Origin: Minisyncoccota bacterium
Lineage (GTDB): Bacteria; Patescibacteriota; Minisyncoccia; Phycocordibacterales; UBA1006
NCBI GenBank assembly: GCA_028697455.1
Contig: JAQVEZ010000001.1
Coordinates: forward strand, 3,902-67,901
Direction: 5' to 3'
Length of the DNA stretch: 64,000 bases
The position numbers were made by a program, and so were the translations under genes. The notes below the pieces were generated by a model, which saw nothing but the letters and a program-made list of their open reading frames with translations, did not search any database and was not told where the DNA came from. Positions 2,493 through 27,782 of this stretch are shown piece by piece; position 1 is the stretch's first letter; each line of letters begins with the position of its first letter.

Positions 2493-4637
2493 ATGCAACG
2501 AGATTATCCTTTAGAAAAAGTAAGAAACTTTGGTATTGTTGCCCACGTAGATGCGGGAAAAACAACAACGACCGAAAGAATTCTTTACTATACGGGGCGC
2601 TCTCATAAGATGGGGGAGACCCATGATGGAAGTGCTGTAATGGACTGGATGGAGCAAGAACAAGAGCGAGGAATCACCATTACCTCTGCAGCAACAACTT
2701 GTTTTTGGACTCCTACTTATGATCCTACCAACCAACAATTAAAACATCGTTTTAATATTATTGACACACCAGGTCACGTGGACTTTACCGCAGAGGTTGA
2801 GCGGTCTCTTAAGGTACTTGATGGGGCGGTTGTTGTTTTTGATGGACAGGCTGGGGTTGAACCACAGTCTGAAACCGTTTGGCGACAGGCAGACAAATAT
2901 CACGTTCCACGAATGTGTTTTATCAACAAACTTGATAAGGTTGGAGCTGATTTTGACAAGGCCTTTCAGTCTATTATTAATAGACTTACACCACACGCTG
3001 TTATGGCTCAAATCCCTGTAGGATTTGAATCAAGTCTTTCTGGGGTTGTTGACCTTCTTACTATGAAAGCGTATCGCTTTGAGGGAAATATGGGGAATGA
3101 AATCATTGAGTTTGATATCCCAGAAGATCTCAAGGCACGAGCAGAAGAAAAAAGAGCTCTCTTCGTTGAAAAAATTATTGAAAACAACGAAGAGCTCATG
3201 AATGCATATTTTGAAGGAGAAGAAATTCCTTTGGATAAACTAAAAAGTGAACTCAGAAAACAAGTTATAGCCAATAATCTTGTTCCTGTTTTTGGAGGAT
3301 CTTCCTTCAAAAACATCGGAGTCCAGCTTGTTCTCAACGCCGTTGTGGATTATATGCCATCACCTGTTGATATTCCTCCAGTAAAAGGAAAGAATGCAAA
3401 AACAGGAGAAGAAGTTGAGAGAAAAGCTTCTGATAGTGAACCTTTTTCAGCTCTTGCCTTCAAACTCGCAGTGGATCCTTTCGTAGGGCAGATTACTTTC
3501 TTACGTATTTATTCTGGAGTTTTGGAAGCAGGTTCTTATGTTCTAAACACACGAACAGGGGATAAAGAGCGTGTTGGGCGATTACTTCAAATGCATGCTA
3601 ACGAGAGAGAAGAGGTAAAAGCTGCGTATGCTGGAGAAATTGTTGCAGCGGTTGGGCTTAAAGATATTAAAACCTCTGATACCTTGTGTGACCCAGCATC
3701 ACCTGTTATCCTCGATGAAATTATTTTCCCTGAACCAGTGGTTTCTCTCAAGATTGAACCAAAGACAAAAGCCGATCAGGAAAAAATGGGTATTGCTCTT
3801 TCTCGTCTTGCAGCAGAAGATCCAACCTTCAAGGTTTCAACTGATGCAGAAACTCTTGATACGGTGATTTCAGGGATGGGAGAACTTCACCTTGATATTA
3901 TTGTAGAAAGAATGAAGAGAGAGTTCGGTGTTGAGGCTAACGTCGGAGCTCCTCAGGTTGCATACCGAGAAACCATCCTTGGAAATGCAAGTGCAGAAGA
4001 GAAATACATCAAACAATCAGGAGGACGTGGTCAATATGGACACGTTAAGATTAATATCTCACCACTTCGCGAACTTGCAGAAGGGGAAACTCTTCCAAAG
4101 AATGTCAAACGAGACGAAGATGGATTTGAATTTGTTAATAATATCAAGGGAGGAGTTATTCCAAGTGAATATATTCCAGCTTGTGAAAAAGGATTCAAAG
4201 AAGGAATGCAACGCGGTGTTGTTGCAGGATATCCAATGGTAAATGTGTCTGTTGATTTGTACGATGGAACCTATCATGAAGTCGACTCCTCTGAAATTGC
4301 CTTTAAGATTGCTTCTTCAAAAGCTTTCCAAGATGCTGCTCGACAAGCGAATCCAGTTCTCCTCGAACCTATGATGAAGGTTGAGGTGGTTGTTCCAGAA
4401 GAACACATCGGAGACGTTACGGGAGATATTTCTTCAAAGAGAGGACTCGTTGAAGGAGTTGATGAAAAAGGAATGGTCCAAGCAGTTCGAGCAACTGTTC
4501 CGTTGTCTGAAATGTTTGGATATATTAATAACTTACGATCGATGACATCAGGGCGAGGACAGTTTACTATGGAGTTCTCACGTTATGATGTTGTTCCAAA
4601 AAACGTTGCAGATGAAATCATAAAAAAACGAAGCTAA
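2493..4637 (+). CDS. fusA: Elongation factor G
   Basis: G-domain [32 protein letters not shown] and NKLDK motifs. 714 aa. Confidence 0.9.
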
Positions 4638-4689
4638 GCTTTGTTTTTTTTATTTATCTACAGATTATTTTATTTTGTGCAAAAAAACT

Positions 4690-4727
4690 TGCATCGGGGG
4701 GGGGGCAGGACGATATACTAGAAAGGT
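4690..4727 (+). promoter_or_regulatory. Putative promoter with a 10-G homopolymeric tract (approx 4696-4705) abutting a TATACT -10 element, 8 nt before the start codon
   Basis: Sequence gcatcGGGGGGGGGGcaggacgaTATACTagaaaggtATG. An almost identical arrangement is found at 26405-26447. Confidence 0.45.
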
Positions 4728-5279
4728 ATGAATAAATACGTAAAAATATTATTAGTAGCTTCATCCTTATTTTTTGGAGGAGCTGGAATATTATCAGCAC
4801 AGGAGATAGAGTGGTCAGAACCTTTTGCTGATCCATCAGGATATATTATTGAATGGGGCTCAGTAACTTACGGAAACAACACCTTCGTTGCGGTGGGGTA
4901 TAATTATAATACTTATAAAGGAATGATCATGACTTCATCTGACGGAACCACTTGGTCAGGACCTTTTGCTGATCCTTCAGAAAATAATATTTATTGGGGC
5001 TCAGTAACTTACGGAAACAACACCTTCGTTGCGGTGGGGTATAATGGTGGTACTGGTAAAGGAATGACCATGTATTCACTTAACAACGAGATAGTAGATT
5101 CTTCTGTTTCAAAACACTCAAGCATCTTCGGAACTCGCTTCTGCTCAGATACGGTAACTACCTTTTGTAGACCTAAGAGTGGATTTATCAACAACATTCC
5201 ATTGATTAGTATCTATACTGAACTCTTGGGGCTCTATCAACAACTCCTTTCTGCAATGCAAGGCGGAAACAGCTTATAA
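4728..5279 (+). CDS. Secreted BNR/Asp-box repeat protein (short paralog) with a conserved cysteine-containing C-terminal domain
   Basis: Signal peptide MNKYVKILLVASSLFFGGAGILSA. Two near-identical ~45-aa repeats (EPFADPSGYIIEWGSVTYGNNTFVAVGYN), one carrying the Asp-box SSDGTTW. The C-terminal ~50 aa (SSIFGTRFC...VTTFCRP..GF.NN.PL..IYTELLGLYQQLL) is shared with ORF 26448-27764. Confidence 0.6.
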   Translation: MNKYVKILLVASSLFFGGAGILSAQEIEWSEPFADPSGYIIEWGSVTYGNNTFVAVGYNYNTYKGMIMTSSDGTTWSGPFADPSENNIYWGSVTYGNNTFVAVGYNGGTGKGMTMYSLNNEIVDSSVSKHSSIFGTRFCSDTVTTFCRPKSGFINNIPLISIYTELLGLYQQLLSAMQGGNSL

Positions 5280-5295
5280 AAGCTGTTTTTTTATT
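5264..5295 (+). terminator. Rho-independent terminator hairpin aaacagctt-ataa-aagctgttt followed by a T-run
   Basis: Inverted repeat followed by TTTTTTT. The sequence is conserved with the terminator after the paralog at 27752-27782. Confidence 0.5.
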
Positions 5296-7158: not shown

Positions 7159-7797
7159 ATGATAATAACATATTACGGAAAGCAATTTTTTAAACTTCAG
7201 CACGGAGATTTTACCTTGGCAATAAATCCATTGTCAAAAGACAACACTTTGGGGATAAAACCCGCAAAATTTGGCTCACAATTGGCGTTGAGTTCACTGC
7301 ATCATAAAGACTTTAATGGCTTTGAAGCCGTGACATATAATGGGGAAGAGCCTTTTCTTATTTACGGTCCAGGGAGCTATGAGATTAAGGGATATACCTT
7401 TGACGGTTTTCCGAGCGAAGCAAACATCGATGGTAAGTCATATATCAATACTATTTATTTTTTTACCATGGAGGATATTTCTTTTTGTTTTCTTGGAGAT
7501 ATTTTTGACGAACATATTGATCAAAAAGTAAAAGAGTTTATCGAAACCGTTGATGTTATTTTTGTCCCTATAGGAGGAAAGGGGACTCTCGATCCTATCC
7601 AGGCATCTAAAGTTATTCGCTATTTTTCACCGAAAGTTATTATTCCTATGGACTTTGGAAAAGACCGTGATTCAAAAGTCCTTGAGGTTTTTCTTAAGGA
7701 AATGTCATCACATGCAAAAGAAGAAGCAAAATATGTTTTCAAGAAGAAAGATCTTGAGACCTTAAACAATCACGTAGTCCTTCTCAAAGCTCAATAA
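7159..7797 (+). CDS. MBL-fold metal-dependent hydrolase-like protein (UPF0173-like); His motif appears degenerate
   Basis: N-terminus MIITYYGKQFFKLQHGDFTLAINP resembles MKITYLGHACFLIE...ILIDP of YtkL/UlaG-like hydrolases, but no clear HxHxDH motif is visible. Confidence 0.35.
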   Translation: MIITYYGKQFFKLQHGDFTLAINPLSKDNTLGIKPAKFGSQLALSSLHHKDFNGFEAVTYNGEEPFLIYGPGSYEIKGYTFDGFPSEANIDGKSYINTIYFFTMEDISFCFLGDIFDEHIDQKVKEFIETVDVIFVPIGGKGTLDPIQASKVIRYFSPKVIIPMDFGKDRDSKVLEVFLKEMSSHAKEEAKYVFKKKDLETLNNHVVLLKAQ

Positions 7798-16382: not shown

Positions 16383-16808
16383 ATGAATAAATATTTTCTT
16401 GCAAAACTTTACTCATTTTTAATTTTTGCACTTTCTTTTGGCGGAGGGTTAAAAGGTGTTTTTGCTCAGGGGAAATCAGGGACTGATACCCCACCAGGGC
16501 AATCAGGATCTGACACTCCAGAAGGAGTTCCTGGGATGTCGATCAAGCTCGATAACCCTCTTGGAACAACTGACAGTATTCCTATGTTGATCAAGAGACT
16601 CCTTGATGTTGTTTTGACCATTGGGGTTCCTTTAATAGCCTTGGCTATTATTTATGCAGGTTTTCAACTCGTTACTGCTCAAGGGAATACAGAAAAACTT
16701 AAGGTAGCCAAGAGAAACCTTGTCTACGTTGTTATTGGGGCGGGAATTCTTCTTGCAGCTTATGCTATCTCTGAAGTAATCGTTGGGACCGTCACCGCTA
16801 TTCGTTAG
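16383..16808 (+). CDS. Secreted 2-TM pilin-like protein (TrbC/VirB2-like)
   Basis: Signal peptide MNKYFLAKLYSFLIFALSFGGGLKGVFA, Pro/Gly/Thr-rich spacer, TM1 VVLTIGVPLIALAIIYAGFQLV, basic loop QGNTEKLKVAKRN, TM2 LVYVVIGAGILLAAYAI. The start context (tgatatact..aaggtATGAATAAATA) is shared with the two BNR-protein genes. Confidence 0.55.
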   Translation: MNKYFLAKLYSFLIFALSFGGGLKGVFAQGKSGTDTPPGQSGSDTPEGVPGMSIKLDNPLGTTDSIPMLIKRLLDVVLTIGVPLIALAIIYAGFQLVTAQGNTEKLKVAKRNLVYVVIGAGILLAAYAISEVIVGTVTAIR

Positions 16809-16824
16809 CCACACATTAGGAATT

Positions 16825-17175
16825 ATGAACATTTTTAGAAATAAATGGATACTTACTTTGGGGGCTCTTTTGTTACCAAGTTTTGCTCTTGCTGCAACGA
16901 CCTTTAAAAATATTATTTTTTCAACGCTTGATATTATTGGAAATTATTTAATGCCAGTTTTGTTTGCACTTGCCTTGGCTTATTTTATTTGGGGAGTAGC
17001 TGATTTTATTCTATCAGCAAACAATCAAGCCGAACGAGAAGCAGGGAAGACGAGAATTATTTGGGGAATTGTGGCTCTTTTTGCAATGGTTGCGTACCTT
17101 GGACTTGTAAATATTTTTAGTTCAGGGTTCTTTAACACCAGTTCGACCTTACTTCCTCAATTGTTTACCTCTTAA
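16825..17175 (+). CDS. Small 2-TM pilin-like protein paralog
   Basis: AGGA RBS before the internal ATG at ~16825 (MNIFRNKWILTLGALLLPSFALA signal), TM1 MPVLFALALAYFIWGVADFIL, loop NQAEREAGKTR, TM2 IIWGIVALFAMVAYLGLV. Confidence 0.5.
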   Translation: MNIFRNKWILTLGALLLPSFALAATTFKNIIFSTLDIIGNYLMPVLFALALAYFIWGVADFILSANNQAEREAGKTRIIWGIVALFAMVAYLGLVNIFSSGFFNTSSTLLPQLFTS

Positions 17176-17178
17176 ACT

Positions 17179-17529
17179 ATGACATCAAATCTCAAAAAAA
17201 ATATCATTGCGCTTGGTGCAAGTACGTTCCCAGTTTTTTCCTTTGCTCAGGTAGGGCAAAATATAAAATCTTTTCTCTCTTCGATAGGAACTCTTGTTAA
17301 TGCGTATATTATTCCTCTTTTGATTTCACTTGCCCTCCTCTATACCATTCTCTCGGGGGTGAGATTGATTCAGGAATCTGATTCTGCAAAGAAAGGGGAG
17401 AGAAGAACTCAACTATTGTGGGGAATTATAGGACTCTTTATTATCCTTTCTATTTGGGGAATTCTTGCGGTATTTTCAAATACTTTTACTGAAGTCTTTA
17501 TGGGGGGGACCATACAACCTGGAAAATAG
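17179..17529 (+). CDS. Small 2-TM pilin-like protein paralog
   Basis: Signal peptide, TM1 IIPLLISLALLYTILSGV, loop QESDSAKKGERRTQ, TM2 LLWGIIGLFIILSIWGILAV. Very similar to 13756-14118 (shared motif GLFxILSIWG). Confidence 0.55.
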   Translation: MTSNLKKNIIALGASTFPVFSFAQVGQNIKSFLSSIGTLVNAYIIPLLISLALLYTILSGVRLIQESDSAKKGERRTQLLWGIIGLFIILSIWGILAVFSNTFTEVFMGGTIQPGK

Positions 17530-25884: not shown

Positions 25885-25967
25885 GCGTCGGTGGCAGAGT
25901 GGTCAATTGCACGGGACTGTAAATCCTGCGACGTTAGTCTACGGGGGTTCAAATCCCTCCCGGCGCA
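25885..25967 (+). tRNA. tRNA-Tyr (anticodon GTA), long variable arm
   Basis: GCGTCGGTGGCAGAGTGGTCAATTGCACGGGACTGTAAATCCTGCGACGTTAGTCTACGGGGGTTCAAATCCCTCCCGGCGCA. No CCA encoded. Confidence 0.85.
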
Positions 25968-26228
25968 CTTATTTTAAAGAAAGACACGAAAGTGTTTTTC
26001 TTTTTTAATAAGAAGATAAGAGGGAGGATTTGAAAAAAGTCGCCTGCAAAGCCGGACGAAGTCCGTAGGCGACGGCGGGGTCGAGGCTCTGAGCTCAAAG
26101 CCGAATCTTTGATTCTAGGCGTGAGCCAGAGCGGTGACCAAATCCCTCCCGGCGCACTTATTTTAAAGAAAGACACGAAAGTGTTTTTCTTTTTTAATAA
26201 GAAGATAAGAGGGAGGATTTGAAAAAAT
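25951..26228. repeat. Direct repeat: 191-bp unit x ~1.45 beginning inside the tRNA-Tyr 3' end; the unit contains a terminator hairpin and a GC-rich structured segment
   Basis: caaatccctcccggcgcacttattttaaagaaagacacgaaagtgtttttcttttttaataagaagataagagggaggatttgaaaaaa occurs at ~25951-26038 and ~26142-26228. The ~103-bp segment between the copies is GC-rich and carries hairpins (gtcgcct...aggcgac; gaatc-ttt-gattc). Confidence 0.8.
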
Positions 26229-26404
26229 AAAAACTCTCTAGAGGGTTTTTTGCTGTTAATGATTTTTATCCCTCACAAGAAATGCATACATTTGCTTCTT
26301 GGGTTGATGTTTGTTCTCCCGCAGGAGCCTCGTTGGTAAAAGGATCGATATATTCTTTCTTTTTCATGTTTCTAGTATACCATAATTTTTTTGAAGAAAC
26401 TCTT

Positions 26405-26447
26405 TTTACTTGACTCGGGGGGGGGGCGGAATATATAATAGAAAGGT
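26405..26447 (+). promoter_or_regulatory. Putative promoter with a 10-G homopolymeric tract (approx 26416-26425) abutting a TATATAAT -10 element
   Basis: gactcGGGGGGGGGGcggaaTATATAATagaaaggtATG. Paralogous to the element at 4690-4727. Confidence 0.45.
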
Positions 26448-27764
26448 ATGAATAAATATATTTTTACATCACTACTATCGTTATTTGTGATAGTAGGTTT
26501 TATAAGTTTTATTAATCCACACACAGCTTCTGCCCAACCTCTTGAATGGGAAGAGTTTGATCTCAGCCCCAATGAATATAATTCTATTGCCTATGGAAAT
26601 GGTGTGTATGTTGCTGTAGGAAGCGGAACCCCCATGTATTCCTCTGATGGGAAGAATTGGAATATGTCAATTCTTCCAAACGCAGCATCACTATCCTCAG
26701 TTGTTTATGGAGATGGGAAGTTTGTTGCGGTGGGGAGAACAGGTTCCCCACTTATGCAAAATATGAATCGGATTATTTACCTTTCTTCTGACGGGCTTTC
26801 CTGGGATATTGCTTCATCAATCCCCGATAAGTTAAATGCACAAAGCAATCTTCTCAGTATTTTTTATATGTATGATAATCTCAACGCTAAAGATTTATTT
26901 GTAGCCTTCGGGCAGGACTACTCTACAGGTGCTGGATCTACTAGCTTACCTTATATTGTTTATTCTTCTGATGGGGACGCCTGGCTCAGATCTACTCTGC
27001 CAATAGGTTCTGACGGAAGCCCGTCCGATGCAGTTGTAGGATATAACGAAAATGGAGAGCTTGTTCTTTTATCCTTTGTATATGGATATGGTATTGGTGC
27101 TCCTTCTTATTATATTATGTCTATTGACGGTGGAGCAACTTGGGTTTACCCGGACTCCCTTACAGGGCTTGATGATTTTCAGGGGCTAAGCATGAGTTAT
27201 CTCAACGGAAAATTTTTCTACGTGGGACATTCTTATGACGATGAAGAAGGTAAGGATCTGTTCTCTGTGAGATCCTCTATGAATGGACTTGATTGGGATA
27301 AAGGATCAATAGAGTTTCCTGAAGAATTCTTATCGGGTAGTAGGGAGACATCTGCTTATGGAGATAACACGTATCTTTTTTTCCTTTCCCCATCACTTGG
27401 TTACACACCCCCTCTCTATTCCCCCAACGGAGAAACCTGGGAATTCTTTACCCCAAGTTTTGATAAGAGTAGTTATGTATCTCCTATCCAATTAATTTAT
27501 GCAGAAGATTCATTTATGCTCCTTGGTCGAAATGAATCAGGAGGATATGTTATTGCTTTTCCCAAATCCTTGAATGATTCATCAGAAATACCTTCTTCAA
27601 AATCCTCAAGTATTTTCGGAACTCGATTCTGTACAGCAGGAGTTACTACCTTCTGTAGACCTCAGAATGGATTTACCAACAATAATCCATTAGTAAATAT
27701 TTACACTGAACTCTTGGGGCTTTATCAGCAACTTTTGAATACGATTCAAAATGAAAACAGCTAA
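26448..27764 (+). CDS. Secreted BNR/Asp-box repeat (beta-propeller-like) protein with a conserved C-terminal domain
   Basis: Signal peptide. Asp-box motifs SSDGKNW, SSDGLSW, SSDGDAW, SIDGGATW. Repeated YG.G.FVAVG blades. The C-terminal ~50 aa (SSIFGTRFCTAGVTTFCRPQNGFTNNNPLVNIYTELLGLYQQLL) is shared with 4728-5279. Confidence 0.65.
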   Translation: MNKYIFTSLLSLFVIVGFISFINPHTASAQPLEWEEFDLSPNEYNSIAYGNGVYVAVGSGTPMYSSDGKNWNMSILPNAASLSSVVYGDGKFVAVGRTGSPLMQNMNRIIYLSSDGLSWDIASSIPDKLNAQSNLLSIFYMYDNLNAKDLFVAFGQDYSTGAGSTSLPYIVYSSDGDAWLRSTLPIGSDGSPSDAVVGYNENGELVLLSFVYGYGIGAPSYYIMSIDGGATWVYPDSLTGLDDFQGLSMSYLNGKFFYVGHSYDDEEGKDLFSVRSSMNGLDWDKGSIEFPEEFLSGSRETSAYGDNTYLFFLSPSLGYTPPLYSPNGETWEFFTPSFDKSSYVSPIQLIYAEDSFMLLGRNESGGYVIAFPKSLNDSSEIPSSKSSSIFGTRFCTAGVTTFCRPQNGFTNNNPLVNIYTELLGLYQQLLNTIQNENS

Positions 27765-27782
27765 GTTTAGCTGTTTTTTGTT
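27752..27782 (+). terminator. Rho-independent terminator (acagct-aagttt-agctgt followed by a T-run)
   Basis: Conserved with the terminator after 4728-5279. Confidence 0.5.

Follow-up and report, generated by a model that had tools for sequence, protein, structure and literature searches.

Poly-G tracts in the promoter spacers of genes for predicted secreted BNR-like proteins of a Patescibacteria genome as candidate contingency loci

Is a run of ten G residues just upstream of a gene for a predicted secreted protein part of a phase-variable promoter? The question arises in a 64-kb stretch of DNA (the window, 37.5% GC) in which exactly two G or C runs reach 8 nt or more, both of them G10. The next-longest G/C runs in the window are one G7 and one C6, and the number of G runs of at least 10 nt expected in 64 kb is 0.005 with independent bases and 0.015 with a first-order Markov model.

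Promoters containing the poly-G tracts

The first tract occupies exactly positions 4696-4705 of the forward strand, where a first-pass annotation of this DNA had placed it approximately, together with a TATACT -10 hexamer 8 nt before an ATG. This hexamer was found as described (4714-4719, ATG at 4728). A -35-like hexamer, TTGCAT, was read from the sequence at 4689-4694; it matches TTGACA at 3 of 6 positions and aligns with the TTGACT of the other module copies. The promoter (copy 1) is laid out as TTGCAT-C-G10-CAGGACGA-TATACT-AGAAAGGT-ATG(4728), in which C, G10 and CAGGACGA make up a 19-bp spacer. The annotation had further located a second tract-plus-promoter arrangement at 26405-26447, and there, on the same strand, TTGACT (26410-26415), G10 (26417-26426) and TATAAT (26434-26439) form copy 2, TTGACT-C-G10-CGGAATA-TATAAT-AGAAAGGT-ATG(26448), with an 18-bp spacer of C, G10 and CGGAATA and with the -10 again ending 8 nt from the ATG. 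The annotation erred in describing the tract as abutting the -10. Between the G run and the -10 there are 8 nt in copy 1 and 7 nt in copy 2, and between the run and the -35 there is 1 nt, so that the run lies inside the -35/-10 spacer and adjoins the -35. This anatomy, observed directly at both copies, is that of the Neisseria porA, opc and fetA promoters, in which a homopolymer occupies the spacer.

From the -35 through codon 4 the two copies are nearly identical, and their flanks have diverged. In a consensus promoter scan covering spacers of 16-18 bp, the TTGACT-18-TATAAT of copy 2 matched 11 of 12 consensus positions and was the top candidate in its region; with its 19-bp spacer, copy 1 falls just beyond the range of the scan. 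A third copy was found in a contig from another sequencing run (L082:11160-11222, SRR28106884), which reads TTGACA-N5-TTGACT-C-G11-CAGAGGA-TATAAT. It is situated in a different genomic region (L082:11198), 3′ of a terminator, and the contig ends before the driven gene; in this PilB-ATPase neighbourhood the module follows an 875-aa gene. The module conserved at the three loci consists of TTGACT or TTGCAT, C, G10-11, 7-8 nt, TATAAT or TATACT, AGAAAGGT and ATG. Searching metagenome contigs with the module as DNA gave no matches.

The assignment of the -10 hexamers is validated by the promoter grammar of the genome. At 26 of the 61 gene starts in the window a hexamer resembling a -10 has its 3′ end 6-9 nt upstream of the ATG, while almost every other distance is represented by 0-2 genes, and the arrangement is often TGCTATACT-N6-ATG. 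An SD-like 4-mer precedes only 3 of the 61 starts, so that Shine-Dalgarno sites appear to be absent from this genome and first genes are evidently transcribed, by default, as leaderless or near-leaderless mRNAs. The copy 1 -10, ending 8 nt before the ATG, predicts an mRNA that is leaderless or carries a leader of ~2 nt; transcription is predicted to begin at ~4725-4728 for copy 1 and ~26445-26448 for copy 2. The usual promoter in the window combines an extended -10 (TGnTATACT/TATAAT; examples at 7159, 10684, 12680, 16383, 35235, 36382, 42503, 44328, 46807, 57594 and 59296) with a poor -35, and the spacing of the -35/-10 pairs present outside the two poly-G promoters peaks at 16-17 bp. The poly-G promoters are exceptions to this pattern: CGA and ATA precede their -10 in place of TGn, and their TTG-type -35 hexamers are the best in the window.

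Two other kinds of switch were considered for these promoters and rejected. A translational frameshift switch of the intragenic simple-sequence type does not fit a tract upstream of the ATG, since an in-frame TAG overlapping the -10 stands between tract and ATG at both copies (4719-4721 and 26439-26441), and none of the start codons farther upstream opens a frame through the tract; an effect of the tract can only be transcriptional. An invertible promoter of the fim/hin type was discarded because no inverted repeats were found flanking either promoter and no recombinase is present among the listed neighbouring genes.

Tract length and gene content in related strains

Both poly-G genes are monocistronic, each lying between terminators. 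At locus 1 (fusA-[gene]-pth), the intrinsic terminator of fusA (EF-G) at 4622-4650 on the + strand, with the 3′ half AAGCTTTGTTTTTTTTATTT, sets the gene behind it apart as a separate transcription unit. That gene, PHC89_00065 (4728-5279, + strand), encodes the 183-aa predicted secreted protein and is followed by the cassette terminator (5265-5290, + strand), whose 5′ stem half overlaps the last codons and whose 3′ half is imperfectly repeated, in direct orientation, by the AAGCTTTGTTTTTTTTATTT of the fusA terminator. At locus 2 (clpB-tRNA-Tyr-33-aa ORF-[promoter]-miaA), copy 2 precedes PHC89_00200 (26448-27764, + strand), encoding a 438-aa predicted secreted BNR-like propeller protein, and the terminator (27753-27778, + strand) overlaps the stop codon. 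The copy 2 promoter region is bounded on its other side by a divergent 33-aa ORF (26266-26367, minus strand) with its own promoter, TGGTATACT-N6-ATG, at 26374-26382 on the minus strand, independent of the G tract. The ORF (MKKKEYIDPFTNEAPAGEQTSTQEANVCISCEG) is absent from the protein collection; its amino acids are identical in a strain ~93% identical at the DNA level, and for this reason it is probably a real small gene.

To compare tract lengths, contigs of related strains were taken from other sequencing runs as carriers of variants in 90%-identity clusters of the neighbouring genes, and the lengths were read from the consensus contigs of automated k-mer assemblies; contigs L096 and L097 end short of the tracts. 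At locus 1 the tract is G10 in the window and in L086 (SRR21722018) and G11 in L087 (SRR21722017), and the start of contig L089 (SRR21722020) falls inside it. The 6,722-nt alignment of L086 with L087 has 0 mismatches, the sole gap being 1 nt in the tract. At locus 2 the window has G10, and in the comparison strain, which shares ~93% identity with it, L090 (SRR21722015) and L091 (SRR21722018) have G11 and L092 (SRR21722008) has G10. Here L091 (G11) and L092 (G10) differ over 8,297 nt by 1 SNP and the 1-nt tract gap, and L090 and L091, both G11, by 67 SNPs and 0 gaps. None of the A/T homopolymers of 7-9 nt in these overlaps (7 in L086 and 14 in L091) varies, which makes the G tract by far the most mutable site in the compared regions. 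Length polymorphism between samples, directly visible in these alignments, is limited to the G tract.

The lengths observed were 10 and 11 only, giving spacers of 18, 19 or 20 bp, and the tract (G10-11) is kept in the ~7% diverged strain despite changed bases in the neighbouring spacer and -10. Uniform length in related strains had been named by the first-pass annotation as a finding that would speak against phase variation; the tract proved not uniform, with G10 and G11 at both loci, and at the level of assembly consensus the near-clonal length variation known from porA, opc and fetA is reproduced. Farther afield, a contig search based on Pth returned nearest relatives of at most 50% identity, and the syntenic site in contigs L002-L004 has no poly-G. 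A C10 (L016:5669-5678) and a G8 (L005:2751-2758) were seen in non-coding DNA near pth of two further CPR MAGs, one from Staskawiczbacteria and one from Zambryskibacteria, in no obvious -35/-10 spacer.

The genes behind the promoters are themselves hypervariable, as observed directly at both loci. Locus 1 carries the two-blade 183-aa allele in the window and a 417-aa allele in L086, L087 and L089, with promoter, signal peptide and C-terminal domain as in the 183-aa gene and a propeller body ~36% identical to it. This low identity led us to reject an origin of the 183-aa gene by internal deletion of the 417-aa allele and indicates allele replacement. In L084 and L085 locus 1 is empty, the junction coinciding exactly with the imperfect direct repeat that the fusA and cassette terminators share in their 3′ halves, and identity to the window flips between ~99% and ~94% across the site, which suggests a recombination breakpoint. 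The borders of the locus 1 cassette (4640-4660 and 5275-5295) are imperfect direct repeats of the form AAGCT(T)TGTTTTTTT(T)ATTT, and the empty allele at L084:5955-5985 equals the exact recombination product of these bounding repeats. Locus 2 in L090-L092 is a deletion remnant, in which the promoter module is kept, the body is lost and the module is fused to the last ~22 codons. The length variation at locus 2, sitting on such a remnant, shows instability and not selection for switching. In one further run, SRR30309652, 228 or more C-terminal aa of the locus 2 gene are present and the locus 1 cassette is absent.

A perfect 89-nt direct repeat was noticed near locus 2 (window 25950-26038 and 26139-26227), comprising the 3′ end of tRNA-Tyr (25885-25968) and 70 nt downstream; the copies bracket a GC-rich insert of 100 nt (26039-26138). 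Contigs L090-L095 have a single copy, so that the repeat is either a window-specific duplication or insertion at the tRNA 3′ end or an assembly artefact.

The predicted secreted protein family

The 183-aa product matches PHC89_00065 of a Candidatus Pacebacteria/Paceibacterota (CPR) MAG at 100% identity. As the first-pass annotation had described, it consists of two internal repeats (4812-4937 and 4953-5078, 126 nt each and 87% identical) followed by a C-terminal domain shared with the locus 2 protein, and its description as a secreted Asp-box protein is consistent with a signal peptide read at ~aa 1-24 and one canonical Asp-box, SSDGTTW. Signal-peptide-like N-termini were likewise read from the sequence for the products of the tract-controlled genes, and several Asp-boxes are visible in the 438-aa and 417-aa proteins. 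Among the window proteins, Pfam matches to BNR_2 (E=0.0056) and DUF6242 (1.8e-4) remain below the gathering thresholds; homologs carry the BNR-type families PF14870, PF02012, PF13088 and PF15902. In an AF2 model of the 183-aa protein, two blades with pLDDT >90 are followed by a C-terminal helix, and the best Foldseek matches of the blades are propellers of the sialidase/pseudaminidase type, weak at E ~0.01. Taken together, these matches and the model lend moderate support to a BNR-like propeller fold.

The C-terminal domain (5100-5276 in the 183-aa gene, 27579-27761 in the 438-aa gene) is ~55-60 aa long, contains Cys and follows the pattern SSIFGTRFC-x5-TTFCRP-x2-GF-x-NN-x-PL-x2-IYTELLGLYQQLL. 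It matches no Pfam family. A profile of the domain found only 15 representatives among 1.84 billion proteins, 11 of them at E <= 1e-10 with the domain at the extreme C-terminus, and searches for the domain gave no relatives in genome contigs and no matches in metagenome contigs. The gene family is lineage-restricted: at least 9 members belong to the source MAG (PHC89_00065, 00200, 01105, 01475, 02125, 02285 and 02925, MDD3694044.1 and the split pair 02510/02515), and the remaining representatives come from related Logan assemblies. Members of the family share a few signal-peptide types and have highly divergent bodies, mostly BNR-like with Asp-boxes and YGxxxFVAVG blades; some bodies are unrelated, such as that of PHC89_01475. 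The locus hypervariability and the presence of at least 9 paralogs in the MAG strengthen the suggestion of the first-pass annotation that a surface-protein family may be under stochastic control.

Some members and neighbours deserve separate mention. PHC89_02510 and PHC89_02515 are adjacent and encode 78 aa (the C-terminal domain only) and 279 aa (signal peptide and blades), and the pair looks like one member split by a frameshift or stop codon. PHC89_01475 (contig L001) has an ordinary TGGTATACT promoter and no tract. Upstream of its ortholog, at L001:170-300, a TTGACA-16-TAAATT promoter is followed by ~90 nt and a strong terminator with no ORF, a unit that could be a small RNA. In the window, three consecutive small genes of 141, 130 and 116 aa (16383-17529) each encode a signal peptide and hydrophobic helices and look TrbC/VirB2-pilin-like by eye; the first starts with MNKY, shares AAGGTATGAATAAATAT with the poly-G genes and has an extended -10 and no tract, and the G7 of the window (17502) falls within the third.

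Interpretation of the tracts

We consider it probable that the tracts are promoter-spacer contingency loci of the porA/opc/fetA kind, in which slippage alters promoter strength. The G10 tracts would be hypermutable simple-sequence repeats in the spacers of sigma-70-type promoters driving predicted leaderless mRNAs for predicted secreted BNR-like proteins. Slipped-strand mispairing at replication, which we infer as the cause of the length changes, would add or remove one G, shifting the spacer by 1 bp and rotating the -35 relative to the -10. Because the poly-G promoters lack TGn and have the best -35 hexamers, the geometry between -35 and -10 should matter for them, and their strength would be expected to change stepwise with tract length, as a volume or on/off switch. 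Since the observed spacers of 18-20 bp exceed the local 16-17 bp, we predict low or no activity for the majority states in these samples, and ON for G8-G9. No allele was seen with the presumed optimum spacer of 16-17 bp, so that a presumed ON state is missing from the observed alleles. Occurring at no fewer than three loci in front of hypervariable genes, the module would constitute a set of contingency loci for the secreted or surface repertoire.

It is also conceivable, though unlikely, that the tract is unstable yet a neutral passenger of a duplicated promoter cassette, with the -10 alone driving transcription and no switch. In this genome most promoters do without a recognisable -35, the tract varies in length even where the gene body has been deleted, and the 18-20 bp spacers never reach the canonical optimum, all of which would suit a passenger. 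An unselected homopolymer, however, is expected to decay by interruption, and the lengths of 10-11 are kept at three loci and across ~7% divergence, while the rest of the window and the related-strain contigs from other regions contain no long G tracts. Moreover, these are the very promoters that lack the TGn making a -35 dispensable and yet possess the best -35 hexamers in the window.

A stable tract serving as a fixed promoter or spacer element, with the G10/G11 differences due to sequencing or assembly noise, is quite improbable. Illumina sequencing makes more indel errors as G runs lengthen, and part of the length variation, read from consensus contigs of automated k-mer assemblies and limited to +/-1 differences, could be technical. 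Against noise of this kind, no other indels occur in 6.7, 8.3 and 13.2 kb of pairwise overlap, A9 and T8 runs included; two independent contigs, L090 and L091, both have G11 at locus 2, and the window and L086 both have G10 at locus 1; a consensus path normally represents the majority of reads. An artefact of poly-G read ends was rejected, the tract being internal, with unique flanks on both sides, and recovered in independent assemblies. We regard as highly improbable that the G run is a deterministic cis-element, that is, a regulator operator, a G-quadruplex or an A-form element tuning a long-spacer promoter in a MerR-like manner. Spacers of 18-20 bp do resemble those of activator-dependent long-spacer promoters, and the flanking C...CAGG context is conserved, but a binding site under purifying selection would not be expected to vary in length, and the spacer is without dyad symmetry or an adjacent regulator gene. 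A MerR-type promoter was rejected on the same ground, C-G10-CAGGACGA having the right length and no dyad, and no MerR-family gene lies beside the poly-G promoters, whose neighbours are fusA/pth and the 33-aa ORF/miaA. A quadruplex was rejected for want of G runs, one G10-11 run and one nearby GG being, on a reading of the sequence, too few for a stable intramolecular structure.

Taken as spacer contingency loci, the poly-G promoters belong to a class that is textbook knowledge, homopolymer phase variation in the promoter spacer. In Neisseria meningitidis, porA (poly-G), opc (poly-C) and fetA vary in phase through the promoter spacer (PMC2791445). The promoters described here share with them a G/C tract of ~10 nt between the -35 and -10 of a sigma-70 promoter and 1-nt length changes among close relatives; their products are predicted to be secreted or surface-located, and by analogy a graded promoter strength would be expected. 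They differ in coming from a CPR/Patescibacteria MAG instead of a proteobacterial pathogen, in their predicted leaderless mRNA, in a tract that directly adjoins the -35, in spacers of 18-20 bp that are not centred on 17, and in the occurrence of the module at three or more loci. A second parallel is provided by Mycoplasma hyorhinis, a minimal-genome, host-associated bacterium in which poly-A promoter switches operate in a variable surface multigene family: each vlp gene has a homopolymer in its promoter spacer, and the 5′ leader and signal-peptide regions are conserved while the bodies vary. The present family resembles vlp as a multigene family with a spacer homopolymer, a conserved 5′ end and variable bodies, and departs from it in having poly-G instead of poly-A and BNR-like propellers with a C-terminal domain, without a lipobox, instead of repetitive lipoproteins. 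Campylobacter jejuni and Haemophilus contingency loci likewise use hypermutable poly-G as a stochastic source in surface-related genes, but their tracts lie mostly inside reading frames and act by frameshift, whereas those described here stand upstream of the ATG. As for the proteins, the SxDxGxTW Asp-boxes and YGxxxFVAVG blades are those of BNR/Asp-box propellers (sialidase-like, Ycf48/PSII_BNR and sortilin-Vps10), from which the 183-aa allele differs in having only two blades and a C-terminal domain outside the Pfam families.

The mechanism class being familiar, what is unusual is the combination of leaderless mRNAs, one module serving several loci and a link to the cassette-like replacement of alleles. 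A full-text literature search found no report of homopolymer or simple-sequence phase variation in CPR/Patescibacteria. More tentatively, the poly-G module, with its leaderless mRNAs, may be a reusable site from which a hypervariable family of secreted propellers is expressed stochastically, and in which a conserved 5′ handle (promoter and signal peptide) and a conserved 3′ handle (C-terminal domain and terminator) would serve as recombination arms, allowing passenger cassettes to be swapped, deleted or inserted. It is possible, although we would not put it higher than that, that a simple-sequence contingency system, which would be the first documented in CPR, and such arms together make up a combined phase and antigenic variation system that would control the face shown by an ultrasmall episymbiont to its hosts or to phages. 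CPR/Patescibacteria are mostly uncultured and host-dependent, with tiny genomes. If the proposal is true, contingency loci would be a general solution used also by environmental ultrasmall bacteria, and the family, with at least 9 of the ~600 genes of the MAG, would be marked as probable determinants of interaction.
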